This document shows positions 15 through 39,520 of a DNA stretch of 39,520 bases, one piece after another. The notes under the pieces were generated by a model. That model was not told the DNA's origin, ran no database searches, and saw only the letters and a list, made by a program, of their open reading frames with translations. The stretch's first letter is position 1; every line of letters starts with the position of its first letter. Origin of the DNA: Bacteroidales bacterium (GTDB taxonomy: Bacteria > Bacteroidota > Bacteroidia > Bacteroidales > UBA3824); contig JAZUEG010000270.1 of NCBI GenBank assembly GCA_045640025.1, positions 1-39,520 of the forward strand, in the 5' to 3' direction. The position numbers were made by a program, and so were the translations under genes.

Positions 15-1880
15 TTACCTAACAATAAGGAGTTTTTTTGTAATCTTGTGGCCAGTATCGGGATTCACTACAAAGATAAGGTATACTCCGGTGGCGCACT
101 TGTGTCCGTTGAGGTTTAGCCCGTCCCACGTTATGCGTCCGCCCTCCGATACAAAACTGTGCACAAGATGGCCCGCCGCATCGGCTATGCGCACGCTGCA
201 TCCGTCCTCCAGGCCCGATACGCAGATATCGCCGCTGTAACCGGGGCGCACGGGATTGGGATACACCAATACATTAGAGAGGTCAGCTGATGGCTCCTGC
301 ACATCCGACATATACGACGCGAGGCCGTTCCTCGTGCCGAAAAACACATCGCCCGTCATCTGCACAATACTCAGGCTGTATACAGTATCGCTGGGCAGAG
401 GCGAGTTGCGCTCGTTGTAGTGGGCTATCTCCTTGTCTGTATCAGCTGATACCAAAAACACACCGGCGCCCATTGTGGAGATCCATTTCCTGTTGGCAGC
501 GTCGACATCTATGGCCGTAATGTGCTTGCCGTGCAGCAGATGCTGTGCATACTGATCGCTTGTGCCGAGAGGCTCCACTACCACTGGATTTGCAAATACG
601 GCATTGCCCTCCATTATCCGCCCGGTATTGGAGCAGGCCACCACACCCTTGTCGGTGCCCACCAGGAGCATTCCGTACATATCCAATGCCATGCACGTAA
701 CCATGTCTCCGGCCTTGGCCCCGCCCACCATCGGATAGAACGAGACGTATCTGTCGTCGGAAAAATCGAGCGGACTTCCGCCCAGATCCACGGCAAAGAT
801 TCCGGCCTTGCCCATATTTACCAGAAACACATAATCGGACAGCCGAAGCAATCCAAGAGGCGATGCACAATTCATTGACTGAAAAGACGATGCGCTATGC
901 CAGTTGCCGTTGTGGTCGAATATGGTTACGGGATTGGCGCGGTCGGCAGATAATATAAGGAGGTCGCCCTCGGGAGTGCAGTCCATATCCACAATGCGCC
1001 CCCTCGCACGGCCGGCATAGCGCGCCTTTAGATTGTGGCCTATGTATTCGAAAACAGTTCCATTTTCATCGCCCAGAAATACGTGCTGGGGATTGTATGG
1101 ATTATGAAACACGGCTGTAAAATCCACGCTGTCAGGATTTTCTGTATAGAAGATTCCGCTCCTCTGTACCTCAGTATAGTATCGCGAGGCCATGGCCAGC
1201 ACACCTGATGCCTGCGCCATCTGATGGGCATAGTCGCACGGCACCGACCTCGGCACGGGACCGCCGTATGCAGTTTTTTCCGCCATCAGCTGATACAATC
1301 CATCATAGCTCCACTGCCCGGGATCCTGAAGGTTTGGGCAGCTGATGGCGGCAGAGTAGGCACCATGAGCGGTAACGGCAAATATCTCGCCATTAGCTAC
1401 AAGACACATTTCCACACCCGGCAGAGGACACGAGGCCAGCACCTCGCCCCTGTACGAATCCACCACCGAGACTCCGAAATCTCCGCTGGCAAGTATTAAA
1501 GAATTGCTGAAAGTGATATGGCGTATGCAGCTAATGTCGTGAGAATTGCCGAGTGTGATATCCGGCAGGTAAGTTCTGTGCCCTCCGCTTATGATATCGA
1601 GCGAGCCATCCTCGTAGCCCACAGCTATCACCTGGCCCGAAGCCGCACCGGCCGACACATACGAGCTGGACAGACCGGTGGATTTGGCGAGCGTGGTAAT
1701 CTCGCCCGAGCGGTCCACCACAAAAACTCCGTTGCGGCACACGCAGAGAGTACCGCCATCGTATTCGCAATACGAGAGCACATCGCTGAAACTCGGGCGC
1801 GGTGTCCACTGTCCGTATGCGGCCATGGCAGCTAACAGCGTGAAAATGAGAGCTGATATGTATCTAAGACTTCTTGACAC
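15..1880 (-). CDS. porZ: T9SS accessory protein PorZ-like (beta-propeller repeats + C-terminal type A sorting domain)
   Basis: Signal peptide (YISALIFTLLAAMAAYGQW), propeller motifs (ITAIDVDAANRKWISTMGAGVF, NSPLPSDTV, FFGTRNGL) and a C-terminal VYPNPVRP...WDGLNLNG...GVYL...KLLIVR tail. GTG start at 1880 chosen because the longer ORF (to 2012) overlaps ruvC. Confidence 0.85.
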   Translation of the reverse strand: MSRSLRYISALIFTLLAAMAAYGQWTPRPSFSDVLSYCEYDGGTLCVCRNGVFVVDRSGEITTLAKSTGLSSSYVSAGAASGQVIAVGYEDGSLDIISGGHRTYLPDITLGNSHDISCIRHITFSNSLILASGDFGVSVVDSYRGEVLASCPLPGVEMCLVANGEIFAVTAHGAYSAAISCPNLQDPGQWSYDGLYQLMAEKTAYGGPVPRSVPCDYAHQMAQASGVLAMASRYYTEVQRSGIFYTENPDSVDFTAVFHNPYNPQHVFLGDENGTVFEYIGHNLKARYAGRARGRIVDMDCTPEGDLLILSADRANPVTIFDHNGNWHSASSFQSMNCASPLGLLRLSDYVFLVNMGKAGIFAVDLGGSPLDFSDDRYVSFYPMVGGAKAGDMVTCMALDMYGMLLVGTDKGVVACSNTGRIMEGNAVFANPVVVEPLGTSDQYAQHLLHGKHITAIDVDAANRKWISTMGAGVFLVSADTDKEIAHYNERNSPLPSDTVYSLSIVQMTGDVFFGTRNGLASYMSDVQEPSADLSNVLVYPNPVRPGYSGDICVSGLEDGCSVRIADAAGHLVHSFVSEGGRITWDGLNLNGHKCATGVYLIFVVNPDTGHKITKKLLIVR

Positions 1881-2412
1881 GGTCGGGATTGTTGGCAATA
1901 AAGGCGGCCCAGCTGTTTGAGCCTTTGCTGGCCACAGGCATACGTTTCTGATAATGATGGCATACCGCGGCGGCCAGGGCGTCGGTGGCGTCCAGCTTGT
2001 CGGGAGCCTCATCTATCTTCAGGGTCATGGCAAGCATACGCGCCACCTGCTCCTTGGTGGCCGATCCGTTGCCGGCCACGGCGAGCTTTATCTTCCTTGG
2101 CTCATACTCGAAAATCTGAAGTCCGGCGTTTACGGCGGCCGAGATAGCCACGCCCTGCGCACGGCCAAGCTTCAGCATGGATTGGGCGTTCTTCTCGTAG
2201 AACTGCGCCTCGATGCTCAGTTCGGTGGGATTGTAGCCCTTGATGAGACCGCTCACACGGTCGTATATCATCTTCAGCTTCAGGTAAGGATCCTTAACAT
2301 TATGAATATCAAGAATACCGATAGCGAGGCACTCTATCTTGGAGCCCTCGCTGCTGATGATGCCGTAACCCATGAAATTGGTGCCCGGGTCGATGCCTAA
2401 TATTACTGCCAT
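1864..2412 (-). CDS. ruvC: Crossover junction endodeoxyribonuclease RuvC
   Basis: ILGIDPG, IEAQF, LKLGRAQG, G.A.KEQV and DATDALA motifs; 182 aa. Confidence 0.97.
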   Translation of the reverse strand: MAVILGIDPGTNFMGYGIISSEGSKIECLAIGILDIHNVKDPYLKLKMIYDRVSGLIKGYNPTELSIEAQFYEKNAQSMLKLGRAQGVAISAAVNAGLQIFEYEPRKIKLAVAGNGSATKEQVARMLAMTLKIDEAPDKLDATDALAAAVCHHYQKRMPVASKGSNSWAAFIANNPDRVKKS

Positions 2413-3383
2413 TAGCTGATACGGACTCTAAGTTTCTCGAGGAATGATTTCAGCACATCGGCCTTGCCGGCAGGAGCGGCTTTCTCCAGGAGTGCGAACG
2501 ACTCGCTGTAATATTCGTCCACCATCTGCTGAACCTGCTTATCCACGCCAAACTCTGCGAAATACTCGCGGGCCCTGGCGAGCTTGGCCTCGAATGTGTA
2601 ATCGTGGCTGGAGTAGAATGTGCGCCACTCCTCTACCCTATCAGCTGGCATCAGCTCTATGATCTTGTGGTAGAAAACTGTCTTCTTGCACTCATTGACA
2701 TCGCCGCCGACGGGCTTGCCGAGAACCTCGGGAGTCGAGTACATATCGAGGAAGTCGTCCTGAATCTGGAACGCTATGCCGAATTTGATGCCGGCGTCGT
2801 ATAGCATCTGGGCCTGATTCTCGCTGGCCCCGCCGATGAGTGCGCCTATCTTGAGGCAGGCGGCTGGGAGCACGGCTGTCTTCAGGGTTATCATCTTCAG
2901 ATAGTCCTGAAGGGAGACATCGTTGCTGGTCTCGAAATCCATATCGTACTGCTGACCTTCGCAGACCTCGATGGCGGTTTTCAGGTAGAGATCCATGCAC
3001 TGGAGACGAACCTTCTCGGGAGCCGTCATCACGTACTTGGTGGCAATGTATGTCATTCCGTCGCCGGAGAGTATGGCCACGTTGTCGCCCCACTTGGCGT
3101 TTACGGTAGGCTTCTTGCGGCGGAGTTTGGAGTTGTCCATGATGTCGTCGTGCAGAAGAGTGAAGTTGTGGAAAATCTCCATTCCCACAGATGGTTTCAC
3201 GGCCTCAGCTACACTATCGCTGTACATATTGCAGGCCATGAGTCCGAATACGGGACGCAGCCTCTTGCCGCCCAATGATAGGATATACTTTACAGGTTCG
3301 TAAAAATTCTTTGGCTCGGCAGGATACTGGATGTCAGCAATCTCCTGCTCCACTATGGATAGAAGTTCTTTGAATTCTTTCAT
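2412..3383 (-). CDS. ispA: Short-chain polyprenyl diphosphate synthase (IspA/GGPPS type)
   Basis: GGKRLRP, FARM HNFTLLHDDIMD (Phe at -5 indicates a short chain), GQQYD, FQIQDDFLD. Start at MKEFKELL; the stop overlaps the ruvC ATG (TAATG). Confidence 0.88.
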   Translation of the reverse strand: MKEFKELLSIVEQEIADIQYPAEPKNFYEPVKYILSLGGKRLRPVFGLMACNMYSDSVAEAVKPSVGMEIFHNFTLLHDDIMDNSKLRRKKPTVNAKWGDNVAILSGDGMTYIATKYVMTAPEKVRLQCMDLYLKTAIEVCEGQQYDMDFETSNDVSLQDYLKMITLKTAVLPAACLKIGALIGGASENQAQMLYDAGIKFGIAFQIQDDFLDMYSTPEVLGKPVGGDVNECKKTVFYHKIIELMPADRVEEWRTFYSSHDYTFEAKLARAREYFAEFGVDKQVQQMVDEYYSESFALLEKAAPAGKADVLKSFLEKLRVRIS

Positions 3384-3531: not shown

Positions 3532-4851
3532 ATGAAATTTTTCGACAGGAAAGAAGAGATAGCCAAACTCAGGGAGATTCAGCAAATGTCGCTGAGCAAC
3601 GCCCAGTTTACAATAATAACAGGCCGACGCCGCATCGGCAAGACAAGCATGGTGCTGAAGGCGTTTGAGGATCAGCCACTTGTATATTTTTTTGTAAGCA
3701 GGAAGGCTGAGGCCGCACTGTGCGCGGATTTTCAGCAGGAACTAGAAAACAAGCTCAACATCGTAACCATGGGCAAGGCCACAAATTTTGCCACCATATT
3801 CGAGCAGCTGATGATAATATCAGAGAAACAGAACCTGACTTTGTTCATAGATGAGTTTCAGGAGTTTATCAACGTAAACAAATCCATCTACAGCGACATG
3901 CAGAGAATCTGGGACCTCCACAAAAACAACAGCAGGCTAAACTTAATAGTATGCGGCTCGGTATATTCGCTGATGGGCAAGATTTTCAAGAACGAGAAAG
4001 AGCCTCTGTTTGGAAGAGAGACCGCGCAGATAAACCTGAAGCCATTCAGGCCATCCACATTAAAGGAGATAATGCAGGAATACAATCCCGGATACAGCAA
4101 CGAGGACTTGCTGGCTCTATACACATTTACCGGCGGAGTGGCCAAATACGTAGAGATACTTGTGAACAGCAACACCCTTACGCTGAACAAAATCCTAAAC
4201 AAAATCTGCGAGAAGGATTCCATTTTCATCAGCGACGGCAAATCCACCCTGATAGAAGAATTCGGGCGAGACTATGGAATATATTTCTCGATATTATCAG
4301 CCATTGCCAACGGACACAACTCAAGAAGCAAAATTGAGGAAATCATCGGGAAGGAAGTAAGCGGATATCTTACAAAATTAGATTCGGAATACGGCCTCAT
4401 CAGCAAGCATCAGCCAATGTTTGAGAAAAGCGCAGGCACAAACCTCCGCTACAAGCTCGATGACAACTTCTTCATCTTCTGGTTCAGGTTCGTATACAAA
4501 TACAATTACATGCTCGAGATTGGCGCATACGAGAAACTGCTTCAGATAATACAGCGCGACTACAATGTATTCAGCGGATTGGCTCTGGAGAAATATTTCA
4601 AGGAGGTGATGATGGAATCCAAGAAATACACAAGAATCGGCAACTGGTGGAACCGCAGGGGCGATGTGGAGATAGACATAATATCCGCCGACGAGCTGGA
4701 AAACACAGCGGAATTCTATGAGGTGAAGCGCAAGAAGGAAAACTTCTCGCCAAAACTTCTTGAAGAAAGGAAAGACGCTTTCCTAAACGCCACACATCAA
4801 TTCAAGAACTATAAAATAAAATGTAAGGGATTGTCGATAGAGGATATGTAA
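3532..4851 (+). CDS. ATP-binding protein (ATPase_2 archaeal-type ATPase, probable wHTH, DUF234 PD-(D/E)xK-like C-terminus)
   Basis: MKFFDRKEE start, Walker A GRRRIGKT, Walker B FIDEFQ, CGS, TGGVAKY, DNFFIFWFRF, C-terminal EIDII...EVK. Confidence 0.9.
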   Translation: MKFFDRKEEIAKLREIQQMSLSNAQFTIITGRRRIGKTSMVLKAFEDQPLVYFFVSRKAEAALCADFQQELENKLNIVTMGKATNFATIFEQLMIISEKQNLTLFIDEFQEFINVNKSIYSDMQRIWDLHKNNSRLNLIVCGSVYSLMGKIFKNEKEPLFGRETAQINLKPFRPSTLKEIMQEYNPGYSNEDLLALYTFTGGVAKYVEILVNSNTLTLNKILNKICEKDSIFISDGKSTLIEEFGRDYGIYFSILSAIANGHNSRSKIEEIIGKEVSGYLTKLDSEYGLISKHQPMFEKSAGTNLRYKLDDNFFIFWFRFVYKYNYMLEIGAYEKLLQIIQRDYNVFSGLALEKYFKEVMMESKKYTRIGNWWNRRGDVEIDIISADELENTAEFYEVKRKKENFSPKLLEERKDAFLNATHQFKNYKIKCKGLSIEDM

Positions 4852-4931: not shown

Positions 4932-7274
4932 TTACTTCTCCTCTATTGCCTCATCTTTCTTGTCCTTATTGAACTTGAGCTTGAATGTGAGCAGAAGCGA
5001 TGGCAAGAAGAGGAGGTTGGTGAACATGGCCACAAACAATGTTATGGATATCAGCAGGCCAAGGGCTATGGTGCCGCCAAACTGCGATCCGCAGAACATG
5101 AGGAAGCCGCAGAGGAGTATCAGAGCCGAATAGATGATGGAAACGCCGGTCTCGCGGAGCGACTCTATCACCGACTTGCGTACATCGCCGAGGTTGTGGT
5201 CGATGGCCTGGCGGAACTTGGTGAAGAGGTGGATGGCGTTGTCCACAGAGATTCCGAACGCGATATTGAACACAAGGATTGTGGAGCTCTTGAGTCGTAT
5301 ATCAAAGAATCCCATTATGGCGGCGGTTACTATCAGCGGAATAAAGTTTGGAATCACTGATATGATAACCATTCTCCAGTTGCTGAAGAGAGCCATCATA
5401 CAGAGCGATATCAGGATGATGGCCAAAACCAAAGACTGAACGAGATTGTCGATGAGCTTGAGCGAGCCCTTGGCAAAGATTACCGATGTTCCTGTAATAT
5501 CCACAACGTTACCCTTATCAGCTGGGAAATACTTATCGATGATGGCGGCTATGCTGTCGGTAACATCAATCATGCGGATGGTGCCCACATCAGCTATACG
5601 CATCTGAATGCGCGCGCGTGAGAATGTGGTATCCACCATGGCGGTCATCACATTGTTGGCGCCCTTCTGCGAACGGTTGTTGTTCAGGTATTCCTGGAAG
5701 AAGAGAAGCTCGGCCTCGCTGTTGGGCAGACAGAAGAAATCGTTGTTGCCGTTGTAATAAGCGCGGTTGATGAGCTTGATGGCATCGGCGAAGGATGTGC
5801 CGTGGCTCAGACAGTTGAAGCTGGCCAGCGAATCCTCAATGGCCTCTATGTTGCGGATGGTCTTCATCTTCAGCAGGCCTTTCTTCTTCTTGGTATCGAT
5901 GGAAATCTCCATAGGAAGAATACCCTTGAGCTCCTTCTCAAAATACTTGAGGTCGCTGTAGATAACATTGTGCTCCGGGAGGTCGTCCACCTGGAAACTC
6001 TCGTTGCGCATGAGTGTGAGGCCGTATATTGCCACTGCCACTACCACGATGGTGGCGGTGAAGATAAGCTTGCGCTTGCGCTCCACAAGGTACACGAACT
6101 TTTCAACGATATTGGTCACAAACTTGGTATCGAGATGCTTGAGCTCCTTCTCGGTAGGCGGAGCCACGTAGCTGAATATCGACGGCACCATAAGCACAGA
6201 GAGTACAAACATTGTGATAATGCCGAGAGTGGCCACCAGGCCAAACTCCATGAGCATTGCATTGCCGGTGATGAGGAATGTGGCGAAACCTGCGGCGGTG
6301 GTAAGGTTGGTTAGGAATGTGGCCTTGCCCACCTTGGTGATTACCTCGAAGAGTGATTTCTCCTTGTCGCGGGTCTCACGGTATACCACATGATACTTGT
6401 TGAGCAGATATATTGTATTAGGAATACCTATCACTATGAGAAGCGGAGGCAGCATTCCCGACATCATGGTGAGCTCGTATCCGAACAGGGCCATGAAGGC
6501 CATGGTCCAGATAACGCCCACAAATACTATAAGCACACTCCAGAGAGTGGTCTTGATGCTGCGGAAGAATATCATGAAAATGATGGACACGATAATGAGC
6601 GAGAGCACGGCGAAGAATATCAGCTCGTCCTTAATCATCTTCATGGAGCTGCTGCGGATGTATGGAAGTCCGCTGCAGTGAACCTTTACATTATGACGCT
6701 CGCCGTATCCGTATACAGCGCCCTTGATGCCGGCCACCAGCTGATCGAGGTCCTTGCAGACTATGGTCTGCGGATCGCAGGTAATGGCCATTACATAGCA
6801 GTTGTTGGGCGTGTAGAGCAGCTGATCGTAGAATTTGAAATCCTTTACGAGCTGAAACATTGAATCGAGCTCGGCCTGTGTGGTGGGCGCGGGATCAAAA
6901 ATCTTGTTTATCACAAACTTTCTTTCCACGGTATCCTTTACCAGCGATACTGCATTGGTGTACGAGAGAATGCTCTTGACGCCGATGATGCTCTTCATGC
7001 TGTCCTGAAGGCGCACGAGGTCGTTGTATTTATCGAGCGAGATGAAATTCTCGTCCTCGAAAGCCACGGCTATCATGGAAGCATCCTCACCGAAAGTTTT
7101 CTTGAAATCCATGAAACGCAGAAACGCGCTGTCGGACTCGTTGAGCAGCTGCGCGGCTGAATACTTCATGCGCAGGTTCTTCATATTGAAGCCCATGAAC
7201 ACGGTGATAATACCTATTGCTATAAGTATCATCCGCTTGTTCTTCAGTATGAAATTAGCTATACTATTCCACAT
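4932..7274 (-). CDS. MMPL/RND-superfamily transporter
   Basis: 780 aa with two repeats of (1 TM + periplasmic domain + TM bundle); TNLTTAAGF and AFGISVDNAIH motifs. Confidence 0.9.
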   Translation of the reverse strand: MWNSIANFILKNKRMILIAIGIITVFMGFNMKNLRMKYSAAQLLNESDSAFLRFMDFKKTFGEDASMIAVAFEDENFISLDKYNDLVRLQDSMKSIIGVKSILSYTNAVSLVKDTVERKFVINKIFDPAPTTQAELDSMFQLVKDFKFYDQLLYTPNNCYVMAITCDPQTIVCKDLDQLVAGIKGAVYGYGERHNVKVHCSGLPYIRSSSMKMIKDELIFFAVLSLIIVSIIFMIFFRSIKTTLWSVLIVFVGVIWTMAFMALFGYELTMMSGMLPPLLIVIGIPNTIYLLNKYHVVYRETRDKEKSLFEVITKVGKATFLTNLTTAAGFATFLITGNAMLMEFGLVATLGIITMFVLSVLMVPSIFSYVAPPTEKELKHLDTKFVTNIVEKFVYLVERKRKLIFTATIVVVAVAIYGLTLMRNESFQVDDLPEHNVIYSDLKYFEKELKGILPMEISIDTKKKKGLLKMKTIRNIEAIEDSLASFNCLSHGTSFADAIKLINRAYYNGNNDFFCLPNSEAELLFFQEYLNNNRSQKGANNVMTAMVDTTFSRARIQMRIADVGTIRMIDVTDSIAAIIDKYFPADKGNVVDITGTSVIFAKGSLKLIDNLVQSLVLAIILISLCMMALFSNWRMVIISVIPNFIPLIVTAAIMGFFDIRLKSSTILVFNIAFGISVDNAIHLFTKFRQAIDHNLGDVRKSVIESLRETGVSIIYSALILLCGFLMFCGSQFGGTIALGLLISITLFVAMFTNLLFLPSLLLTFKLKFNKDKKDEAIEEK

Positions 7275-7302: not shown

Positions 7303-8205
7303 CTAATCGAGTTTTACGGTTACAGAGCCTATGTTCTTGCCCTCGCAGAACACATCGGCCTGATATATGCCAGCTGATAGCACCTCGCGTGATATGGCGT
7401 ATATTGTGGTGTTCTGAGCACTGCCATCGTAGCTGATAGCCTTGCGCGCCGAATACGAAATCTCCTTGCCCTGATACTTGAAGAGGCCCGAGTTCTCGTT
7501 GATGAGGATGGCTCCGTCGGGTTTCACGATGCGCACGTACAGGTCCTTGCTGCCAGTCTGTGTCATGCTGTTTTCGTTGATTACAAATGTAACCTTAAAC
7601 TTGTGGGTCTTCACGATTCTGGAAGTCTCGTTGTCGCGCTCGTTGAGTGCCACGAGTTTCATCTGCACGGCCTTGAGAGCCTCGGCCTCCTTCACACGGC
7701 CCTGGAGCGAATCCTTTACGTTGCTCAGCTTGCGGTTCTGGCGGTTGGCGTCGCTCAGCTGGTCGGTAAGGCGGGTATTCTCCTCGGTGAGCTCAATGTT
7801 CTTGGTATTCAGGCTGTCGATCTGCACCACGAAACTGCGCATAATGGCGCGCAGGGTCTCCACCTCGGCATGGTATTTCTTGAGCGAGTCGCGGTTCTGG
7901 GCCTTCACCTTCTGGAGGTTTTCCATCAGCTCCGTAACCCTGGCCTTCTGCTCCTCGAGCTGGGCGTTTATAGTATCGTTGGTGGTCTGCAGCTGATTGT
8001 AGCTGTCCATTATGAAGGTCATCTCGCGGCTCAGTGAGTCTTTCTCCAATGTACCTTTCTCTATCTGCGAGATCAGCAATTCAGATTCGCGCTTGTTGTT
8101 GCCCATCATTACGAGCAGGGTGATGATAGCCACGGCCTCGAGTATAGCCGCTATCATCAGAAACTTGTTGACACCCGATGATTTGTTTTCCATTGTATCT
8201 TCCAT
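7303..8205 (-). CDS. Membrane-anchored coiled-coil protein with C-terminal beta-sandwich, function unknown
   Basis: N-terminal TM (FLMIAAILEAVAIITLLVMM), long heptad-rich region, C-terminal LYVRIVKPDG...GIYQADVF. A TAACTTTG promoter element lies at 8250-8257 on the minus strand. Confidence 0.75.
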   Translation of the reverse strand: MEDTMENKSSGVNKFLMIAAILEAVAIITLLVMMGNNKRESELLISQIEKGTLEKDSLSREMTFIMDSYNQLQTTNDTINAQLEEQKARVTELMENLQKVKAQNRDSLKKYHAEVETLRAIMRSFVVQIDSLNTKNIELTEENTRLTDQLSDANRQNRKLSNVKDSLQGRVKEAEALKAVQMKLVALNERDNETSRIVKTHKFKVTFVINENSMTQTGSKDLYVRIVKPDGAILINENSGLFKYQGKEISYSARKAISYDGSAQNTTIYAISREVLSAGIYQADVFCEGKNIGSVTVKLD

Positions 8206-13069: not shown

Positions 13070-13114
13070 TTGCCATTAGCTGATACAAAATAAATTTGCC
13101 ATTAGCTGATACAA
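13070..13114 (+). repeat. Direct repeat TTGCCATTAGCTGATACAA x2 (26-bp period), two copies of the iterated motif
   Basis: Identical 19-mers at 13070-13088 and 13096-13114. Confidence 0.95.
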
Positions 13115-13602: not shown

Positions 13603-13678
13603 CAACGTATTCAGCTAATGGGGCCGGCAAGGCTCCAAGATACAGAAACAGAATTATTACACAATAAAACCACACCAA

Positions 13679-25186: not shown

Positions 25187-25246
25187 GAAAGCCACTAAAT
25201 CACTAACAATTAACAAATTAACCAAATTTATCCCCATTCAAAACTT

Positions 25247-25279
25247 CGCCAAATTGAGCAAAAATTCGTCAATTTGGCG
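25247..25279. repeat. 11-bp inverted repeat with 11-bp spacer
   Basis: CGCCAAATTGA-gcaaaaattcg-TCAATTTGGCG. Confidence 0.8.
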
Positions 25280-26592: not shown

Positions 26593-26595
26593 CAG

Positions 26596-27882: not shown

Positions 27883-27885
27883 AAA

Positions 27886-27922
27886 AAATGCGCAACCCTG
27901 ATTATTACAGAGTTGCGCATTT
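27886..27922. terminator. Bidirectional intrinsic terminator
   Basis: AAATGCGCAAC-c-CTG / CAG-a-GTTGCGCATTT between convergent genes. Confidence 0.8.
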
Positions 27923-27973
27923 CATTTAGTACGCCATCAGCTAAAATGCCATTAGCTGATATGATGAAAATAA

Positions 27974-31654: not shown

Positions 31655-32860
31655 TCAAAGGGATAGGATTTTGATAGCGAGTAATACCGGCAAAATTTCC
31701 ACGCCGCAAAGGTACAAAAACAAATAAAAATATGAAAAATGTTTGTCAATAATAATTTTAATAAGCCTAAAAATTTTCAAAATCTCGGCTACAGCACATC
31801 CTATTAGGGTTGCGAAGAACACAAAATCGTGGATTCCCTGCTTGTTTATGTAAAAACTCATGATATTAGCTACCAGGAGAAAAACTCCCGTGGCCTGCAT
31901 CAGATACGAGACATTGTGATAATAGCTCGTAAAAACATCCTTGCAGCCGAAGAGCTGGGCCAGGAAAAACGATATCACCGACTTGACGGCGTATACTGCC
32001 AGCACCAGCACTATGAGCGCCACAAAAGCCAGCGGAAAATCCAATGGCAGCTGATAGCCATATCTATACACCGCCACTATCACCAGCAGCGATACGCAAA
32101 GCAGATAATTGATGAACAGGAGGGCACCGCTGCGGTCGGCGTTCATGTTGCGCTCGCGCTGCCGGTTGAGGAACGCGTTGTGGAAAACCGTAACGCTGAA
32201 TATCCTGGATATGTAGCCCTCGTGATTGAACATTCCGAGCAGCCCCAGCACTATGCCCAGCGCTATAGGCACTATCACTCCCCATGGATACTGCTCCTGT
32301 ATAGGGTCGGTATTCAGGTCGATATGGAAATGCGGAGGCAATGGCTTGCGGAGGTCTATGTTCCTGGCCCTGATGCCGAACTGCTTTACGGTGTAGTCGT
32401 CGAGGTTTCGGGTATCGAATGGCAGAAACATCGACAGCGAATCGCGCTTGGATAGCTTATGGAGATCGTCGGCAAGATATACAGGCGATGTGGCGTCGGG
32501 CCTTATCTTTACGTAAAACTCCAGCTTATCGCTCTTAACTACCGGAGGCACAGGGTTCTGCGCATTCAGGTAATTGGCCGGCAATGTAAACAGATGCCTC
32601 TCGGGAGCCTTGGGCAGTCCGGATGGATGGGTTTCAGATATCCCGCCATCAGCTGATACGGTTTCAGATATCTCGCCATTAGCTGATACAATAAAACCGT
32701 AACGCTCCCAGAATGGCTGGCCGGCGGAATGCAGATAGCCGGGGCTGGATGTATAAAAGACAAACGATGTGGAATCGCACGGCACGGGCTGCCAGCTAAT
32801 AGCAAGACCAAGCCTGCTAATGGCCAGTATCAGCAAAATCATTACCGCTAATTTCCTCAT
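31655..32860 (-). CDS. DUF4271 domain membrane protein
   Basis: C-terminal YLFLYLCGVEILP, multiple TMs, position upstream of hemD; promoter TATATTTG on the minus strand at 32893-32900. Confidence 0.8.
   Translation of the reverse strand: MRKLAVMILLILAISRLGLAISWQPVPCDSTSFVFYTSSPGYLHSAGQPFWERYGFIVSANGEISETVSADGGISETHPSGLPKAPERHLFTLPANYLNAQNPVPPVVKSDKLEFYVKIRPDATSPVYLADDLHKLSKRDSLSMFLPFDTRNLDDYTVKQFGIRARNIDLRKPLPPHFHIDLNTDPIQEQYPWGVIVPIALGIVLGLLGMFNHEGYISRIFSVTVFHNAFLNRQRERNMNADRSGALLFINYLLCVSLLVIVAVYRYGYQLPLDFPLAFVALIVLVLAVYAVKSVISFFLAQLFGCKDVFTSYYHNVSYLMQATGVFLLVANIMSFYINKQGIHDFVFFATLIGCAVAEILKIFRLIKIIIDKHFSYFYLFLYLCGVEILPVLLAIKILSL
32630..32689. repeat. In-frame 30-bp tandem duplication, each unit containing the iterated motif
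   Basis: ggtttcagatatcccgccatcagctgatac / ggtttcagatatctcgccattagctgatac, encoding VSANGEISET-VSADGGISET. Confidence 0.9.
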
Positions 32861-32930: not shown

Positions 32931-34516
32931 TTATTCCGGCTCGTAATAATTGGCCTGAGGCGTCTCCTGAGACTGCTCAGACTCCGGGTAAAACTTCTGG
33001 TAATTGAGCAGGCATACTACAGCCTCCACATCGTCGATACTGCATACTGCGGTATTGCCGTTGTCGTATTTCCGGAATATACAGTTCTGCATGAGATGGC
33101 GCACCTTGTCGGATTCGGGCTCTATGAGCCATGGCCTGGCCAAGTCGTCGGGATTGTCCACGGGGCGGAACACGAGAAATCTCCGGGGCATGATCCTTGG
33201 CGCAAGCGGCACGTACTTTACGCTTACCATCTGGCCATCCACATGGCGGAACTGAACCATGCAGCTCTCGGAACGGCCGCCCTTGCCGGGTTTGTCGTAA
33301 TATTTCTCGGCCACAAAGGCTATGTAGTGTCAACCCGCGCACAGCTCTATGTCGGATTTGGGCTGTGTGGAGCTCTGCTCTATATCGAAATCTCCGTTCA
33401 TCTTGTGGCTGAGTTTTACAAAGAGCCATATCGCAAACGGAAGTACCAGGAGGCCGAGCACCAGAGTGAGCAGCAATACCGACTTGTTGCGTTTCTTGAT
33501 GTCCTTCTGGAAGTTTTCGCCGAAATATATTTCGTTGTCGCTGCCGGCTCCGCCGTTGGCGTATTTGGCAAACTTGGTCTTGAATACGTAATTGCCGGTC
33601 ACAAGGTCCTTCTCGTATAATCCGGCGCGGAGCACGTCCTTATAGCCCGTAACCACGCGGCGCATCTTGTGCTTGCCTATATTGTAGCCTATCTCCTCGG
33701 TAACGGTCTTGTAATAGAGCGGGCGCTTGGGCTGATACTGCGGAAACTCGCGGTATTCCTTCTCGAGCACTCCATCTACATCGCGTTTCATGAATCCGAA
33801 TGCCGACTTGTGGATATCATCGCGGGTGCCGTATGCCACACGGCCGGTCTGTCCGTTGATTACGAGCCACTTGCCATCAGCTCCATCTATCCTCATCACG
33901 TACATGGGCAGGTATACGGTATTTAGGATGAGGTTGGTCTCGGTCTCGTATTGCTGGGAGATGCGGAATCCGCGTTTTGTATTGCCGAAGGTCTCGGCCA
34001 CAAACGGTGAATATACGCTGACGGTCTCCTCCACGGTGCGGTCCATCACCTCATCGAGCGAGATGTCGGGAAGCAGCATTCGCCGGCCGGCCGTAAATGC
34101 GAAATCGAACGGCACTATGTCGGATGTATCGAACGGCTCGGCGGCATCCATCACGAGGTTGTCCATCTTGGCGGTCTGGCTCACGAAAATGCCGTCGAGA
34201 TAGCCTCCGCAGGTGTAATCGGCGCCATCGTGACTGAAATCGAGTCTTATAGGTCCGCGTATCATCTGGTATGGCAGATAATATCCCACCAGCGTATCGG
34301 CTATTGACTTGGCTGTCTGCTCTACGCCGTCGATACGGCTGTTTTTCTCGGCCCACTTATTGCATCAAACTCGGCGTTGCGCTTATTGTCCGACTTGGTG
34401 ACCTCCGATGCCAGAGTATCGCTGCCGCACGATGCGCAATGGTAATTCTGCGATATTATATCGTACTCCAGCGGATATCCGCACTTGGAACAGTGTAATG
34501 AGAAAAAGTCGTTCAT
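32931..34516 (-). pseudogene. Third Zn-ribbon membrane-protein paralogue, disrupted
   Basis: N-terminus matches the paralogues (CSKC...CASC). About 70 codons are deleted with a frameshift near 34360, and there is an in-frame TGA at 33330-33332. The remainder (QFRHVDG) resembles the C-terminal domain of copy 1 (KFRDIDG). Confidence 0.8.
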
Positions 34517-34570
34517 ATTTTTATGGTTTTATGTTTATTATATTAGTAGCTGATACATAATTAATTGCCA

Positions 34571-36037
34571 TTAGCTGATACCTCCCATTATCCAGCATAC
34601 CAGCAGCGCAACTATGGCCAGAAACACCACTACCACAATGGAATATGTGACAATCTCGCGCTTGCGTTTCTTCTCGGAATAATAGGTCTCGCTGTCGCCA
34701 TTAGCTCCGCCATATCTGTACTTGGGCACCACCTCCTCGAATTCGGGCTCCTTGATCCAGCCATGTATGGATAGAAGTATTATAAGCGCAAACAGCGATA
34801 CGGCGATAATGATGCCGTGGAGCTCCGACATCAAGACCTCGGTGGGATGCGCAAGTCCGCTGCCGAAAAAATCCTTGAAGAATACGATTGTGTAATACAA
34901 TGCGCCTATCACGAAGCAAGGCTTGGCAAACTTGGAGGCGCGTTTCATGATGTTGGCGCTGTACAGTCCGGCCTTCTCCCTGGGCTTGCCATCCAGCCCC
35001 GTCACCATCTTGTAGAAGAGCGGATGCTGCGGCCTGTACTGTGGAAACTCGTGCAAAACCCTGGCAAGGGCGCCATCATTCCTGCGCTTGAGGAATCCGT
35101 GGGTAGACTTTTGGAAATTATTGTTGCGTCCGCAGGCCACGCGTCCGGTCTGCCCGTTTACCACGCACCAGGTATACTTGTCGATATTGAATATATACAT
35201 GGGCAGATACACGGTATTGGTAATAAGCATCTGGCCCTCCTCCCTGGTATCGCCTGATGAGCTCATAACCATGGGCCGGTCGCCCACATGAAACATCTTG
35301 CTGATATATGGCTGATACTGCTGTGATACCTCCTCCGCTATCCTGCGGTTGAGCTCCTCGGTCTCGATATCGGGCATCAGGGCCTTGTGGCCTGCCATGT
35401 AGCTGAAATCGAAAGGCACAAGATCGGATGTGTTGAAAGGCTCGGCGGCATCGAGCACGAGATTGGGCGCATTGCCCGACTGGCTTATGAATATTCCGTC
35501 GAGGTATCCGCCGCAGGTGTACTTGCGGTCGTAGGCCAGAAAATCAAGACGCAATGGTCCGCTCACCATCTTGAACGGCATGTAATATCCTTCGAGATTG
35601 TCGCGGACTTTTTTTATTTTGACAGCTTTCTGGGGAACATTCCAGTTGCGCTCGGCCCAAGCGGCGAATATATTTACGGCCTCGTCGCGGGTGATATAGA
35701 ACGGTATCACAGCCTGAGGAAACTGCGCATCCGAAAAATGCGACTTGGTGACCGATGTGCCGCAAAAGCTGCAGGTTTTCATAAGCTCGTTGCCGGCCAG
35801 CATCACGCTGGCGCCGCAGCTGCGGCACTTGTACAGCGAGTGGGCGCTGCCCGACCTGGTAAGCCTTATCTTCTGCTCGGCATCAAAAGCCTCGTTGAGC
35901 TTCCTCGCTTTTTCGGTGACCTCGGCGGCCGGCATATCGCATCCGCACGAGGCGCAGTGATAGTTCTGCGTGAGGATGTCGAACCTGAGCGGACTTCCGC
36001 ACTGCGAGCATTTTATCGAAAATATGTTTTGCTGCAT
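34571..36037 (-). CDS. Zn-ribbon membrane protein paralogue 2 (four CxxC, VNGQTG family)
   Basis: CSQC/CASC/CRSC/CSFC, PQAVIPF, GYYMPF, LDAAEPF, VYLP, VNGQTGRV and three TMs; ATG at 36037. Confidence 0.85.
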   Translation of the reverse strand: MQQNIFSIKCSQCGSPLRFDILTQNYHCASCGCDMPAAEVTEKARKLNEAFDAEQKIRLTRSGSAHSLYKCRSCGASVMLAGNELMKTCSFCGTSVTKSHFSDAQFPQAVIPFYITRDEAVNIFAAWAERNWNVPQKAVKIKKVRDNLEGYYMPFKMVSGPLRLDFLAYDRKYTCGGYLDGIFISQSGNAPNLVLDAAEPFNTSDLVPFDFSYMAGHKALMPDIETEELNRRIAEEVSQQYQPYISKMFHVGDRPMVMSSSGDTREEGQMLITNTVYLPMYIFNIDKYTWCVVNGQTGRVACGRNNNFQKSTHGFLKRRNDGALARVLHEFPQYRPQHPLFYKMVTGLDGKPREKAGLYSANIMKRASKFAKPCFVIGALYYTIVFFKDFFGSGLAHPTEVLMSELHGIIIAVSLFALIILLSIHGWIKEPEFEEVVPKYRYGGANGDSETYYSEKKRKREIVTYSIVVVVFLAIVALLVCWIMGGIS

Positions 36038-36051: not shown

Positions 36052-37884
36052 TCAGTCGTTGCAACGCAATTTGTAGTTATGGAGAAAAATTCTGCCCTTT
36101 TCGTCGGAACTGTCGATGGGACTCAGAGTTTTTCCCCGTTTCCTTACGAGCGGATTGCCGGGGTCGAGTTTTAGTCCCGGTGCTATCACCACACGCCAAC
36201 GGGAGTTTCGGTAATCGTCGGTGGCAATATTGCGGCATGCATATACATCGCCATCAGCTGGCACCTCGCCCAATGTCTGATATGTGAGCTCGCGGATACT
36301 GCCGTCGATATCGCGGAATTTGAGAGTAATCACCTTAAGCTCTGTTCCTGAAACCGAAATCTCATCCACCATGAATGCCACGCCGTAATTGAAGTCGGTG
36401 GATTCGGTACGGACCGATGTGGCGTTTCCAGTCCCGGTGCGCCTGGGCTCGGGCTCGCAATCGTAGCCGTTGCGGTAATAGGATATCCACAATCCCACAA
36501 TCAGAATCAGGATGGCGAGCAATACTATTATTATCAGCTCATTTACGGTGCGCACACGTTTCTCGCTGGATTTCTGCAGCCAGTATACCTCGTCGTCGTT
36601 GCCCGATCCGCCGTTCTTGTATTTGGGATACACTTCCCTGAATGTAACTCCGTATTCATGATTGCAGAAAAGGTATACAATTACAAACGCGAGTGTAATT
36701 GTAAATGTAAAGAAGAGCATGGGCAATCCGCTGAGATCCACCGCCACACCCACCAATGCGCTCAACAACCATACCGAAGGACAGAATCCAAAGAGCAAAA
36801 GCTGCAGCTTGACGTCCTGCCTCTCCTCGTATACACCGGGCACCTCCCTGGTTTTTCCGCTGCGGTCGGTCTGGGTCTCGTAGAAGAGCGGTTTCTTGGG
36901 TTTGTATTTCGGGAACTCGTGAAGCTCGCGGATAAGAGTGCCGTCGTGGGCGCGGGCGAGAAATCCGTGTGTAGATTTATGCACATCGAATGGCTTGCCG
37001 TATGCCACGCGGCCGGTCTGCCCATTTACCACCAGCAGCCTCTCTCCCACCCTGAGCAGATAGATTGGCAGATACACTGTATTGGATACGATGTTTTCCA
37101 TAAAGCTTCCGCCCGATGAGCTGAACATCACGCTGGTATCGAACAGGGCCTCGCTTACATCGGCGCGGTACACCTCCGACACCTCGCTCAGGATGCGGAG
37201 TTTCATATCTGCGGAGCTGATATTGGGCAGCATAGCCTTGTGGCCGGCCACAATGGAGAAATCGAACTCCACGAGATCTGTAATGTCGAAAGGCTCGGCG
37301 GCATCGAGCACCTCGTTGCTCAGATTTTGGTTCTGGCTCACAAAAATACCTTCCAGATAGCCTCCGCATTTGTATTGTCCCCTCGACGAGGATACATCGA
37401 GCCTCAGCGGGCCTCTCAGCATCTCGAAAGGGAGATAATATCCCACAAGGCCGTCCACACCGCGCTTTACCGCATCGATATCCGGAAGTGCGGGATTATC
37501 AGCTGACCACTTCCTGACTATATCCACGGCCTCGTGCCTGGTGATGAAGAAGGGAATAATTCCCTGTGGAAATTCGGCGGCATGGAAATCTGACTTGGTA
37601 ATGCTTGTGCCGCAAAAGTCGCATTGCGAAACCAGCTCATTATCAGCCATCATCACATTGGCGCCGCAACTTCTGCATGAATACACCTGCTGGGTGTTTC
37701 GGCTGCGGGTAAGCCTCACAACGTGTTCCTCGTTGAACTTTTCATTAAGCTCCCTGGCAGACTTGGTAACCTCGGCGGCCGGCATATTGCATCCGCACGC
37801 AGAACAGTGATAGTTCTGAGTGAGGATATTGAATCCCACCGGGCTTCCGCACTGCGAGCAGCGGATGGCAAAAACATCGTTCAT
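36052..37884 (-). CDS. Zn-ribbon membrane protein paralogue 1, with an extra C-terminal soluble domain
   Basis: Same motif set as paralogue 2 plus about 140 aa after the last TM. Confidence 0.85.
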   Translation of the reverse strand: MNDVFAIRCSQCGSPVGFNILTQNYHCSACGCNMPAAEVTKSARELNEKFNEEHVVRLTRSRNTQQVYSCRSCGANVMMADNELVSQCDFCGTSITKSDFHAAEFPQGIIPFFITRHEAVDIVRKWSADNPALPDIDAVKRGVDGLVGYYLPFEMLRGPLRLDVSSSRGQYKCGGYLEGIFVSQNQNLSNEVLDAAEPFDITDLVEFDFSIVAGHKAMLPNISSADMKLRILSEVSEVYRADVSEALFDTSVMFSSSGGSFMENIVSNTVYLPIYLLRVGERLLVVNGQTGRVAYGKPFDVHKSTHGFLARAHDGTLIRELHEFPKYKPKKPLFYETQTDRSGKTREVPGVYEERQDVKLQLLLFGFCPSVWLLSALVGVAVDLSGLPMLFFTFTITLAFVIVYLFCNHEYGVTFREVYPKYKNGGSGNDDEVYWLQKSSEKRVRTVNELIIIVLLAILILIVGLWISYYRNGYDCEPEPRRTGTGNATSVRTESTDFNYGVAFMVDEISVSGTELKVITLKFRDIDGSIRELTYQTLGEVPADGDVYACRNIATDDYRNSRWRVVIAPGLKLDPGNPLVRKRGKTLSPIDSSDEKGRIFLHNYKLRCND

Positions 37885-37890: not shown

Positions 37891-37939
37891 TCACTTCAAT
37901 TATTTCAACACTTCAATCACTTCAACACTTCAATCACTT
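37891..37939. repeat. Intergenic 8/9-bp tandem repeat (nnnCTTCAA), copy 2
   Basis: tcacttcaa ttatttcaa cacttcaa tcacttcaa cacttcaa tcactt. Confidence 0.9.
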
Positions 37940-39520
37940 AATCCAGACTCATGCTCACCGTAAAGCCGAACTTGATGTGGGATGTGCGGTAGGCGGTGGA
38001 TATCAGCGGATTTGTGATGGCGTGGTTGTAATAGAACCTTACCTTGAACCGCTCCGACACCTGATAGTCGGCGGTGGTTTTCAGGGAGAAGCTCCTCTGT
38101 CCGGCCGATATCTCGTTGTAGAGTTCCTCTATCTCGCGGAGTATGGTCTTGTCGTTGTTGATAACGAAATCGCAGCGGAGGTCGAGGTCGCTCTTGGTGC
38201 GCTTGCTTCCGCTGGCGGTCTTGATGGCAAAGGGCAGCTGTGCAAACTTGTAGCCAAGACCTATCACCCACTCCCTCTTGTATGCCTCGGATATCTGCGA
38301 ATTGGCAAACGACAATGTGATGAGCCTCTGCCGGCGGTATTCCAGCTTGGTGCTCAGCATGTTGATCCACGATACATCCAGGCCGAAGAGAGGATTGAAC
38401 CTCTCCTCGAGGGTTACCGAGCCTATCTCGTATTTCGGGATAAAGAGGTTGCTGGCGTCGTATCGCTCGAAACTGCTGCCGAACTCCCGCTCGTCGTCAA
38501 ACGAGTAGTTGGCGTTGGTCTTGTAGTTGCTCACCGAATATGTGCTTTGGTACTGATGTGTGAGCAATGCCGAGCGCACTGAGCTTTTGAGCATCGGAAT
38601 GTTGGAAAGGCCCTTGTATTTGAGGCTCCAGTTTGGCAACGGCATCTTCGGGAATGGCGATGTTGAGACTTTTTCAGCTGATGTTCCTGCGTATGCGGCC
38701 AGGAATGCCGGCAGCAATACGTCCTGATGCGTGGCCGAATATCCGTCGGGGTAACCGCCGTTCAATGGATTGCCGTCGGCATCCAGACGCGGGGCTCCGG
38801 TGTATCCGCCCTGCCCAATTCTGGGGTCGGCCTGCCGATGTGCCACCACCTCGCGCGCCTTCAGGAAATCGTTGTATGTATCCAGCGAATAGTCGTTGCC
38901 CACCTTGTGGAATGCTGTGCGCAGCATATTGTAGCTCATGCGGAAGTTTCCGCTCTGGATCTTGTTGGTGGACTGGTATCCGTCGCCCATCCAGTAATAG
39001 AAGTCCTCGGTGTTCATGAGCATTGTGCGGTCCAGGCTTACATCCACTCTGAAAGTGTTGATGGGCTCTACCGAAATGCGGACTCCAAAGTTATTGCCCC
39101 GTGTATATTTTACCGGGTCGGCAATGGTGGTGTCCTTAACGAGCCATCCCCTGTCGGATGCCATCTCGTGGAAGTTTTCGCCATTAGCTGCAAAAATATA
39201 ACCAAAACCTGGAGCCCAGTATCCGCCGTTCTGCTCCATGCCCAGGATGCGGCTGTTGGGGTCGAAGCCCGGGAGCGTGTTTGCCCGCTGGTTTTTGTAT
39301 GATACGGATGCGCTGCGGATACTGAGCAATGCCATGGTGAGGTAGTCGGAGGCCACGAGCAGCGGACTGTCGCTCACTTCCTTCTTGCCGGTAATGGTGA
39401 CTATGCATCCCACGATATCTTCGGCGGTGGTGAATTTTATCCTGTTCTTATCCACGATGTCCACATCGCCCTTCACCTCGTTGCCGTCGATATCGGTAAC
39501 TGATACCACTACATCGGATG
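37938..39520 (-). CDS. sprA: T9SS translocon SprA/Sov, 3' part (runs off the window)
   Basis: QDVLLPAFLAAY, PLPNWSLKY.GL, LTHQYQSTYS, FNPLFGLD, SDLDLRCD, TADYQVS, C-terminal FGFTVSMSL beta-strand. Confidence 0.92.
   Translation of the reverse strand, partial: SDVVVSVTDIDGNEVKGDVDIVDKNRIKFTTAEDIVGCIVTITGKKEVSDSPLLVASDYLTMALLSIRSASVSYKNQRANTLPGFDPNSRILGMEQNGGYWAPGFGYIFAANGENFHEMASDRGWLVKDTTIADPVKYTRGNNFGVRISVEPINTFRVDVSLDRTMLMNTEDFYYWMGDGYQSTNKIQSGNFRMSYNMLRTAFHKVGNDYSLDTYNDFLKAREVVAHRQADPRIGQGGYTGAPRLDADGNPLNGGYPDGYSATHQDVLLPAFLAAYAGTSAEKVSTSPFPKMPLPNWSLKYKGLSNIPMLKSSVRSALLTHQYQSTYSVSNYKTNANYSFDDEREFGSSFERYDASNLFIPKYEIGSVTLEERFNPLFGLDVSWINMLSTKLEYRRQRLITLSFANSQISEAYKREWVIGLGYKFAQLPFAIKTASGSKRTKSDLDLRCDFVINNDKTILREIEELYNEISAGQRSFSLKTTADYQVSERFKVRFYYNHAITNPLISTAYRTSHIKFGFTVSMSLD

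Follow-up and report, generated by a model that had tools for sequence, protein, structure and literature searches.

A recently arisen, hyper-abundant DNA word with species dialects in uncultured gut Bacteroidales: a candidate self-DNA tag

The 39,520-bp contig JAZUEG010000270.1 of an uncultured Bacteroidales bacterium (GenBank assembly GCA_045640025.1) raises a simple question: why does one ten-letter DNA word, GCCATYAGCT, recur in it 21 times, 16 times on the plus and 5 times on the minus strand, when 100 dinucleotide-preserving shuffles of the same contig (called the window here, at its full length) contain 0.17 copies on average and never more than 2? The initial annotation, made from the letters of the window, counted these copies correctly and proposed an uptake tag, a methylase-linked palindrome or a site for a chromosome-organising protein. 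Our results describe the word, in its longer form GCCATYAGCTG, as one species' dialect of a hyper-abundant family of DNA motifs with the core YATCAG in uncultured gut Bacteroidales. It is abundant genome-wide, belongs to DNA rather than to protein, is symmetrical between strands, restricted to one lineage and divided into dialects; it changes directionally between two sister species, is absent from accessory and recently shared DNA and has left an imprint on the proteome. As explanation we tentatively prefer, with chances that we place close to but short of even, a self-DNA tag similar to the DNA uptake sequences (DUS) of Neisseriaceae and the uptake signal sequences (USS) of Pasteurellaceae, spread by biased uptake or recombination.

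The genome of the window (G000, in which the window is contig C270) is a fragmented assembly of 3.92 Mb in 590 contigs, the longest of 40 kb, which is 77.6% complete, has 47% G+C and may include foreign contigs. It was compared with 24 further genomes of its genus, the only one of its family in the genome collection used, and with 400 further genomes of the order, from 231 genera. Identity to G000 is 91.55% in G002 (636,883 aligned columns), about 80% in G010 and G020, and about 64-72%, where alignable, in G001 and G003; base-by-base reading covered 19% of G002, 10% of G010 and 10% of G001. Genes were called by a simple longest-ORF rule, giving 3325 open reading frames (ORFs) on 88.8% of the genome, and the calls are crude. 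Words sampled from the window were found in nine gut-metagenome runs of three studies (fractions present 0.20-0.61), all as contigs; among the 40 of 1461 window differences listed from four metagenome runs, none lies on a copy of the motif.

The enrichment reaches far beyond the window. GCCATYAGCT occurs 1092 times on the two strands of the 3.92 Mb, against 18, 34 and 123 copies expected from Markov models of order 1, 3 and 5, with T at the Y position in 569 copies and C in 523. Correction for codon and dipeptide usage leaves it in place: genes contain 828 copies, and 20 shuffles that preserve every protein sequence and the codon usage of each gene give 76.7 (standard deviation 6.8, maximum 91). 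The partial copies that had been noticed by eye are real as well, the 8-mer core ATYAGCTG being present 40 times in the window versus 2.99 times in its shuffles. In the whole genome this core reaches 730 copies per Mb, compared with about 61 per Mb for equal base use. There is thus one 8-mer core per about 1.4 kb and one 10-mer per about 3.6 kb, and the enrichment of the word is 10- to 60-fold.

The form of the word is strict. Its single-base variants are near chance level (GCCAT[A/G]AGCT, 9 copies against 1092), and the 11-mer GCCATYAGCTG is present 461 times with T and 346 times with C. TYAGCT is nearly invariant; position 2 is open to other bases, T is allowed at position 3 (105 and 137 copies), and the final G may be replaced by A or C. 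Genome-wide, CGCCATTAGCTG and its relatives are the most frequent 12-mers, and the logo of all 2852 copies of ATYAGCTG reads YGSYATYAGCTGM. A second enriched form, TGTATYAGCT (573 copies; TGTATCAGCTGATACA when written in full, M2 in Table 1), is, on the opposite strand, the source of the ...AGCTGATACA extension that had attracted attention earlier, and the composite GCCATYAGCTGATA has 165 copies. The strict core includes the palindrome CAGCTG and the form TATCAGCTGATA is palindromic, whereas GCCATYAGCTG and its relative RGYATCAGS are not. The perfect palindrome GTATCAGCTGATAC reported from the window is borne out.

That the word is a signal at the level of DNA follows from its reading frames, its flanks and the codon-aware shuffles, which place it in the DUS/USS/HIP class (HIP, highly iterated palindrome), as had been suspected. 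The PorZ gene (Pfam PorZ_N_b_propeller; minus-strand ORF 18-2012) contains four copies, which correspond to the peptides EPSA, QLMA, AISC and VANG, in two orientations and several frames. Genic copies throughout the genome use five of the six frames, the sixth being unused because it would contain a stop codon (TAA or TGA). By location, 541 of the 1092 copies are antisense within genes, 287 sense within genes, 246 intergenic and 18 placed across a gene end; about 24% of them lie in the non-coding 11% of the genome, and their intergenic density is about twice the expectation. Density is highest in convergent spacers (1.06 copies per kb), lower in tandem (0.58) and divergent ones (0.54), and 0.24 per kb within genes (828 copies over the 3.485 Mb called as genic; the spacer values use the 219 of 264 non-coding copies with genes on both sides). 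Copies in tandem spacers are found at a median of 29 bp past the upstream stop codon. Intergenic copies are prolonged to tCGCCATTAGCTGa.A and continue into A-rich sequence, and they tend to cluster: 204 of the 1092 copies form 85 clusters, direct pairs peak at 25-34 bp (n=42), tail-to-tail inverted pairs at 20-24 bp from start to start (n=17), and the full palindrome GCCATCAGCTGATGGC exists at 8 sites. Such arrays seem to vary between strains, because the two-copy 30-bp tandem array at 32623-32743 of the window is exchanged for 107 other letters in a contig of metagenome run X5.

Intergenic arrays and inverted pairs are also what is known from repetitive extragenic palindromes (REP), bacterial interspersed mosaic elements (BIME) and miniature inverted-repeat transposable elements (MITE). 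The short intergenic arrays found here have AT-rich flanks, and the copies might be ends or footprints of such elements or of an insertion sequence. Alternatively, they might be a by-product of codon or peptide usage, A[ND]G being a common tripeptide, or an artefact of assembly. We consider this whole set of explanations very improbable. Around genic copies there is no conservation beyond about 13 bp, and the flank logos, which show no extended element, rule out an origin from MITEs or insertion sequences; about 76% of copies are genic, unlike the known repeats, and they arise by substitution, with no sign of insertion. A peptide or codon origin is ruled out by the synonymous-codon shuffles, for the G000 word (77 against 828 observed) as well as for the dialect of G010 described below. 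Finally, the same sites are present in the independently assembled G002, and the stretch itself in gut-metagenome runs of three studies.

The strand bias of the window, 16:5, might suggest a polar signal for recombination or segregation, such as Chi, the FtsK-orienting polar sequences (KOPS) or the architecture-imparting sequences (AIMS). These are likewise short words, frequent in the core genome and located in genes, and Chi of E. coli has a copy number similar to the approximately 1000 per genome found here. Known signals of this kind are oriented with replication and enriched only few-fold, whereas the present word is unpolarised and enriched far more strongly. The two strands of the genome carry 399 and 408 copies of the 11-mer. 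Orientation relative to GC skew is balanced (221 versus 246; Spearman 0.06, p = 0.57, 91 contigs), strand excess per contig is not heterogeneous (chi-square 71.8, 64 degrees of freedom, p = 0.23), and the G010 dialect is equally unpolarised along 120 kb of one contig (51 versus 60). Polarity is ruled out in these three ways, and a polar signal is scarcely credible; the bias of the window results from the twofold preference for the antisense orientation in genes together with the many minus-strand genes of this contig. The idea of a regional site similar to parS, matS or those of SlmA and Noc found no support either: such sites number a few to tens and are confined to a region, in contrast to 1092 spread copies, at least one of which is carried by 120 of the 154 contigs that reach 8 kb. 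We regard polar signals, footprints of mobile elements and artefacts as effectively excluded.

The distribution of the word among relatives is narrow. The 11-mer, counted alongside a reversed-pattern control, is present 807 times in G000 and 700 times in G002, its sole other carrier among the 24 genomes of the genus. G010 and G020 have 26 and 11 copies, mostly of the C form, the remaining 21 genomes have 0-5 copies, which is the level of the control, and none of the 400 further genomes of the order has more than 22. In a scan of the genome collection, one uncultured Bacteroidales record provided 9 of the 80 matches listed, the others being scattered single matches; viral contigs scanned for pairs of the motif yielded 6 singletons and no motif-rich phage. 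Counts of k-mers in samples of about 400 kb found no enriched word of this kind in G001, and a looser enriched family around RGYATCAGS in G010. RGYATCAGS is present 3027 times in G010 (control 326), 2784 times in G020 (224), 1525 times in G002 (319) and 1306 times in G000 (282), versus 142-463 times in the rest of the genus. In genes of the G010 sample it occurs 307 times, against 63.6 in codon-aware shuffles, and uses five frames.

Because G010 and G020 are rich in this relative of the 11-mer, the clade of four species shares a hyper-abundant motif family on the core YATCAG, with extensions that differ as dialects. Each lineage has its own preference: RGYATCAGS in G010 and G020, TATCAGCTGA and GCYATCAGCTG in G002, where TATCAGCTGATA, a perfect 12-bp palindrome, is the commonest form, and GCCATTAGCTG in G000. 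The annotation had recommended sister genomes as a place to look for gain of copies at orthologous sites; the confinement of the sharp word to two species, its place in a four-species dialect family and the ongoing change were all unforeseen. Continuity of sites between the dialects was sought and not found. Since only 14 of 151 G000 cores aligned to G010 are intact there (27 have ATCAG), the site sets of the two dialects are largely independent; in the opposite direction, 78 of 200 G010 sites have ATCAG in G000, about as many as 80% identity predicts.

Between G000 and G002 the change can be followed site by site. In the 637 kb of their alignment, 156 sites of the 10-mer are shared, 90 are found only in G000 and 24 only in G002. 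At shared sites the Y position is C in both genomes 66 times, T in both 58 times and mixed 32 times, always with T in G000 and C in G002. This one-way shift is limited to the full word, as GCCATY without a following AGCT gives 23 versus 22, CAGCTG in the context GTAT-CAGCTG is changed at 2 of 73 sites, and control hexamers show no imbalance. The same numbers rule out a general hypermutation of CAGCTG or CCATC such as deamination of 5-methylcytosine would cause; a search for hypermutable sites across every C context mainly picked up effects of codon position and yielded no usable signal. At many orthologous sites where G002 has GCTATC-, GATATC-, GCCTTC- or CCTATC-AGCTG, G000 has GCCATTAGCTG, so that two or three bases have changed together towards this form, transversions included. 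Counted as shared, G000-only and G002-only, GCCATTAGCTG gives 47/67/8, GCCATCAGCTG 44/18/42, TATCAGCTGA 112/19/86 and GCTATCAGCTG 25/6/35. The direction of change is clear, and the two genomes differ at a quarter to a third of sites.

At lineage-specific sites 2.45 of the 10 motif positions differ on average. Around 73 G000-only sites divergence is 0.16-0.22 within about 25 bp of the site and 0.10-0.12 further out, an elevation that may come from an extended word, from alignment noise in arrays or from short conversion tracts. The clearest single case is at 19386-19413 of the window, where 7 third-codon-position changes unique to G000 are gathered within 28 bp of a gene whose identity to G002, G010 and G020 is otherwise about 95%.

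New copies are acquired at a cost to proteins. Among the 90 G000-only sites, 28 were analysable (within a gene and ungapped for 90 bp on either side), and in 15 of these the amino acid sequence is changed; amino acid difference per codon is 0.170 under the word versus 0.073 in its flanks. In addition, the word has increased the frequency of Ala-Asn/Asp-Gly tripeptides. Per 10,000 residues, A[ND]G is found 9.5 times in G000, 8.9 in G002, 5.8 in G010 and 5.7 in G001, and 413 of the 1104 such tripeptides of G000 are encoded by the word. The tripeptide LMA follows the same trend; control tripeptides are without it.

Foreign DNA is free of the word. Of the 154 contigs with at least 8 kb, 34 are without copies, together 419 kb with a GC content of 0.429 versus 0.474, when 6.9 such contigs are expected; alignment to the G002 sample is also rarer for them (6.7% versus 20%). 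These low-GC contigs, among them the 40-kb contig C320 with a GC skew of 0.16 and methyltransferase genes, are either mobile elements or binning contamination. The window itself has a desert without ATYAGCTG cores (Table 1). Where they align, its bins from 17501 to 22500 have 94-96% identity to G010 and G020, compared with 72-80% in the rest of the window, the bin 22501-25000 has no match in the compared loci of G002, G010 and G020, and the 7.5-kb stretch of G002 that starts opposite the desert has no core copy. Absent from low-GC accessory contigs and from 10 kb of recently shared sequence in the window, the word marks long-resident DNA. Within the desert, core-free genes for a BcrAD/BadFG-type activase and a Kdo transferase (17500-21400) are those 94-96% identical to G010 and G020, which suggests recent exchange between species. 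The part at 22500-25500, with an ATPase_2/AAA gene at 23747-25186, is probably an accessory insertion; a contig from another metagenome joins position 23440 directly to 25236.

Known uptake words are of comparable size, DUS having 10-12 bp and USS a 9-bp core with flanks, and in Neisseria DNA is taken up by a type IV pilus machinery with a ComP-type pilin as receptor. By analogy, a component of uptake or recombination that recognises the word would favour the fragments bearing it; substitutions that improve a near-match would then be over-transmitted (molecular drive), even at a cost to the protein, and the preference of the recognising component would at present be shifting between the sister species. 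We infer biased uptake or recombination as the driver, with a specific receptor protein. A tag of the DUS/USS kind is ranked first because stepwise drive explains together the convergence by several bases, the amino acid cost and the absence from newly acquired DNA. The likeness to DUS and USS is extensive: a non-palindromic word of about 11 bp, present once per 1-4 kb equally on both strands, within genes in several frames and enriched as pairs past gene ends, with dialects, absence from foreign DNA and an imprint on tripeptides. The differences are that this word is found in Bacteroidota, is unrelated in sequence and has a range of four species rather than a family, that a type IV pilus ATPase is missing from the genus, and that direct arrays are commoner than inverted pairs.

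Several observations weigh against an uptake tag. Family PF00437, the ATPase of type IV pilus and type II secretion systems, scored above its cut-off in none of the 25 genomes of the genus, so that the Neisseria/Haemophilus machinery is not there. Competence genes, to which the annotation had pointed, are partly present: ComEC, DprA and a ComEA-like protein with helix-hairpin-helix motifs were found in every genome tested, but they fail to discriminate because motif-free species carry them too. Direct pairs (42 at 25-34 bp) outnumber inverted ones (about 22, with 8 overlapping palindromes), and DNA flanking the shared sites is not unusually similar between G000 and G002. An orphan cytosine methyltransferase, described below, co-occurs with the AGCTG form of the word. 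Known DUS and USS systems are family-wide, this word is confined to four species, and competence is not known in these uncultured organisms.

The ComEA-like protein (G000:C465:541-1695, minus strand; G002:C152:948-2135), with an N-terminal membrane anchor and three HHH_3 motifs, is a lead towards the recognising component, not evidence for it. Its identity between G000 and G002 is only 73%, among the lowest 9% of 505 putative orthologues (median 94%), and it is 25-43% identical to its counterparts in G001, G010 and G020. G010 and G020 differ from each other as much (74%), and its divergence is therefore not counted as evidence.

The second possibility is an iterated palindrome or quasi-palindrome comparable to the cyanobacterial HIP1 (GCGATCGC): an orphan methyltransferase would mark CAGCTG or AGCT, and methylation-aware mismatch repair or very-short-patch repair would create or keep the word. 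A candidate enzyme exists. The C-5 cytosine methyltransferase at G000:C56:5130-6329 (minus strand, 400 amino acids), between a symporter and an ABC-F gene, has an extra N-terminal region of about 85 residues and no adjoining restriction gene. Its only full-length counterpart in the genus is in G002 (95% identity); the other 23 genomes have partial matches of at most 58%, and the two genes that flank it are separated from each other in G010 and G020, where the segment of the methyltransferase is unmatched. Homologues with 57-69% identity are widespread in uncultured Bacteroidales, and one of 83% is located on a 44.6-kb contig of another assembly. Since only G000 and G002 have the enzyme, its gain falls together with the shift from RGYATCAGS to ...ATYAGCTG. 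A Vsr-family endonuclease (G000:C42:3994-4545, minus strand), solitary in that no methyltransferase adjoins it, is present in G002, G010 and G020 as well, and the palindromic CAGCTG in the strict core and the 12-bp palindrome preferred by G002 fit the same picture.

We nevertheless regard this explanation as possible but doubtful. The link between enzyme and word rests on one evolutionary event, as there are few relatives; the homologues carry no specificity names from which that of the enzyme could be read, and G000 has at least 20 other methyltransferase matches, in families too numerous to sort. At 11 letters the main word, which is asymmetric, exceeds the usual length of methyltransferase sites. 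Changes affect every position and include transversions, beyond T:G repair of the Vsr type, and the one-way shift from C to T (32:0) requires both GCCAT and AGCT. Moreover, G010 and G020 have the older dialect without the enzyme, and Vsr occurs in the motif-free G001, though it was not found in G003.

Periodic spacing of 10-90 kb along the chromosome is a mark of HIP1 and the alternate HIPs, on a scale that extends beyond the longest contig of G000. Resemblance to HIP1 goes further than the palindromic core. HIP1 is found both in genes and between them at a comparable over-representation, given as 15- to 300-fold (PMC5861425), and the distribution of an orphan methyltransferase matches that of the word, with alternate words in different lineages (PMC4390886). 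It differs in being a GC-rich 8-bp palindrome, the main form here being an asymmetric 11-mer of moderate GC content whose origin is very recent and whose G010/G020 dialect has neither palindrome nor C56 enzyme. Elhai (2015; PMC4390886) describes each alternate HIP as accompanied by a matching methyltransferase and proposes a model of methylation and repair, and methylated HIP1 is reported to increase transformation (Kamoku and Nielsen 2024; 10.1101/2024.09.10.611283). A methylation mark could thus also serve transformation or recombination, and the self-DNA tag and the HIP1-like explanation may converge. The class of signal foreseen by the initial annotation holds, the choice between its uptake and methylase members being one of probability. 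It seems to us an evenly balanced proposition that these Bacteroidales possess a pilus-independent recognition of self-DNA, whose recogniser may act together with the newly gained orphan cytosine methyltransferase.

The third possibility, that an abundant dimeric protein of the nucleoid or of chromosome organisation binds the copies as an array of sites, each under selection, is unlikely. Tolerance of single bases, with a strict TYAGCT and a looser 5' GCC, and quasi-palindromic half-sites do resemble a protein site, selection and a structural role have been argued for HIP1 (Xu 2018; PMC5861425), and 520 ATYAGCTG cores are common to G000 and G002 versus 102 and 151 that are lineage-specific. 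However, control 8-mers are conserved about equally (74 shared versus 34 and 20). Selection would have had to establish about 1000 sites singly within approximately 10-20% divergence, which is hard to square with the speed of change, and to re-tune them in step whenever the preference changed, often at an amino acid cost. No candidate protein was identified.

Returning to the tag, several of its features have precedents in uptake sequences. Dialects are known (PMC3630211), uptake sequences co-evolve with proteomes and shape them (PMC2817400), and they are located near terminators with a frame bias (10.1101/2025.10.24.684340). The latter survey, of 2025, names in its accessible text no holders of uptake sequences other than Neisseriaceae and Pasteurellaceae. 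Natural competence in Bacteroidota has been described in P. gingivalis (PMC3268665) and Riemerella (PMC8459023), and the terms 'uptake sequence' and 'uptake signal' are absent from the accessible text of the P. gingivalis paper. A literature search, with supplementary files outside its scope, found no such word reported for Bacteroidetes, Porphyromonas, Prevotella, Bacteroidales or Tannerella, and the motif letter strings themselves matched only primers among the matches listed. We thus found no report of an uptake-type or HIP-type word in Bacteroidota. What makes the present one remarkable is the phylum in which it occurs, together with an origin that is very recent and a change of dialect that is visible.

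The copies and related features of the window are collected in Table 1.

Table 1. The word, its 8-mer core and associated features along the window
Feature	Positions	Strand	Setting and state in relatives
GCCATCAGCT copy	285..294	-	sense in PorZ gene, peptide EPSA
palindrome GTATCAGCTGATAC, second word form (M2) on both strands	439..452		
GCCATCAGCT(GATAC) copy	1282..1291	+	antisense in PorZ (QLMA); common to G002
GCCATCAGCT copy	1340..1349	-	sense in PorZ (AISC); common to G002
GCCATTAGCT copy	1389..1398	+	antisense in PorZ (VANG); G002 has GTCATTAGCT
8-mer core ATTAGCTG	1528..1535	-	
GCCATTAGCT(GATAC) copy	2408..2417	+	intergenic; common to G002
8-mer core ATCAGCTG	2640..2647	+	
8-mer core ATCAGCTG	3805..3812	-	
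8-mer core ATCAGCTG	5517..5524	+	
8-mer core ATCAGCTG	6738..6745	-	
8-mer core ATCAGCTG	6819..6826	-	
8-mer core ATCAGCTG	7371..7378	-	
8-mer core ATCAGCTG	7990..7997	-	
8-mer core ATTAGCTG	9202..9209	+	
8-mer core ATCAGCTG	9936..9943	-	
8-mer core ATCAGCTG	12072..12079	-	
8-mer core ATCAGCTG	12096..12103	-	
8-mer core ATCAGCTG	12426..12433	+	
8-mer core ATCAGCTG	12681..12688	+	
GCCATCAGCT copy	12984..12993	+	sense (CHQL); G010 and G020 have GCCACCAGCT
direct pair of GCCATTAGCTGATACA, 26 bp apart (13072, 13098)	13072..13112	+	directly past gene end
8-mer core ATTAGCTG	13612..13619	-	
inverted pair GCCATTAGCTGA...TCAGCTAATGGC (15352 +, 15392 -)	15352..15401		intergenic; common to G002
motif desert, no ATYAGCTG core in 12.5 kb	15399..27950		about 12 expected at window rate
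G000-only copy (19400-19409) in 28-bp patch of 7 third-codon-position changes	19386..19413	-	
direct pair (27933, 27948)	27933..27958	+	intergenic; G002 has GTATCAGCTG and GATATCAGCTG
8-mer core ATCAGCTG	29132..29139	-	
GCCATTAGCT copy	30086..30095	-	antisense (AANG); common to G002
8-mer core ATCAGCTG	32048..32055	-	
30-bp tandem unit GGTTTCAGATATCYCGCCATYAGCTGATAC x2 (copies 32645, 32675)	32645..32689	+	near 5' end of ORF 31658-32860, start uncertain
8-mer core ATTAGCTG	32793..32800	-	
GCCATCAGCT copy	33873..33882	+	antisense (GADG); common to G002
GCCATTAGCT(GATAC) copy	34567..34576	+	intergenic; G002 has GTTATCAGCTGATAT
GCCATTAGCT copy	34697..34706	+	antisense (GANG); common to G002
GCCATCAGCT copy	36250..36259	+	antisense (PADG); common to G002
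8-mer core ATCAGCTG	37498..37505	+	
8-mer core ATCAGCTG	38675..38682	-	
GCCATTAGCT copy	39180..39189	+	antisense (AANG); common to G002

Other repeats are present beside the word. An intergenic minisatellite of the 9-mer CACTTCAAT(C/T)A, a family separate from the motif, occupies 8890-8940 and 37891-37939 of the window; it has 67 short BLAST matches across the contigs of G000 and many copies in G002, G010 and G020. Heptamer arrays of two kinds are among the commonest 12-mers of the G000 genome: (CTCTAAT)n, with up to 10 units and 19 arrays of at least three units (for example C12:8409, C62:1434 and C123:17340), and (TAATTCG)n, with 14 arrays (for example C24:2365 and C35:19169).

How uptake-type and HIP-type words originate has long been an open question, since each known case is ancient and extends over a whole family or phylum. 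In the present case the history is visible within a single genus, in which 21 species have no such word, two have a loose 9-mer and two sister species a sharp 11-mer, so that genomes alone allow one to measure how fast copies are gained, in which order the changes occur, what they cost proteins and how foreign DNA is excluded. Two concrete candidates, the orphan methyltransferase and the fast-evolving ComEA-like protein, are at hand, and the word is a practical marker of resident versus foreign DNA when these genomes are binned. If the proposed tag is real, it would be the youngest uptake-sequence-like system known and the first outside Proteobacteria and cyanobacteria, its recognition word having been written about 1000-3000 times within the lifetime of a four-species clade. 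The birth and the change of dialect of such a word would then be seen in progress, with specificity shifting between genomes at 92% identity. If the word governs DNA uptake, this would also hint at sequence-selective transformation in gut Bacteroidales, with a bearing on gene flow in the gut and on the delivery of DNA into uncultured or hard-to-transform species.

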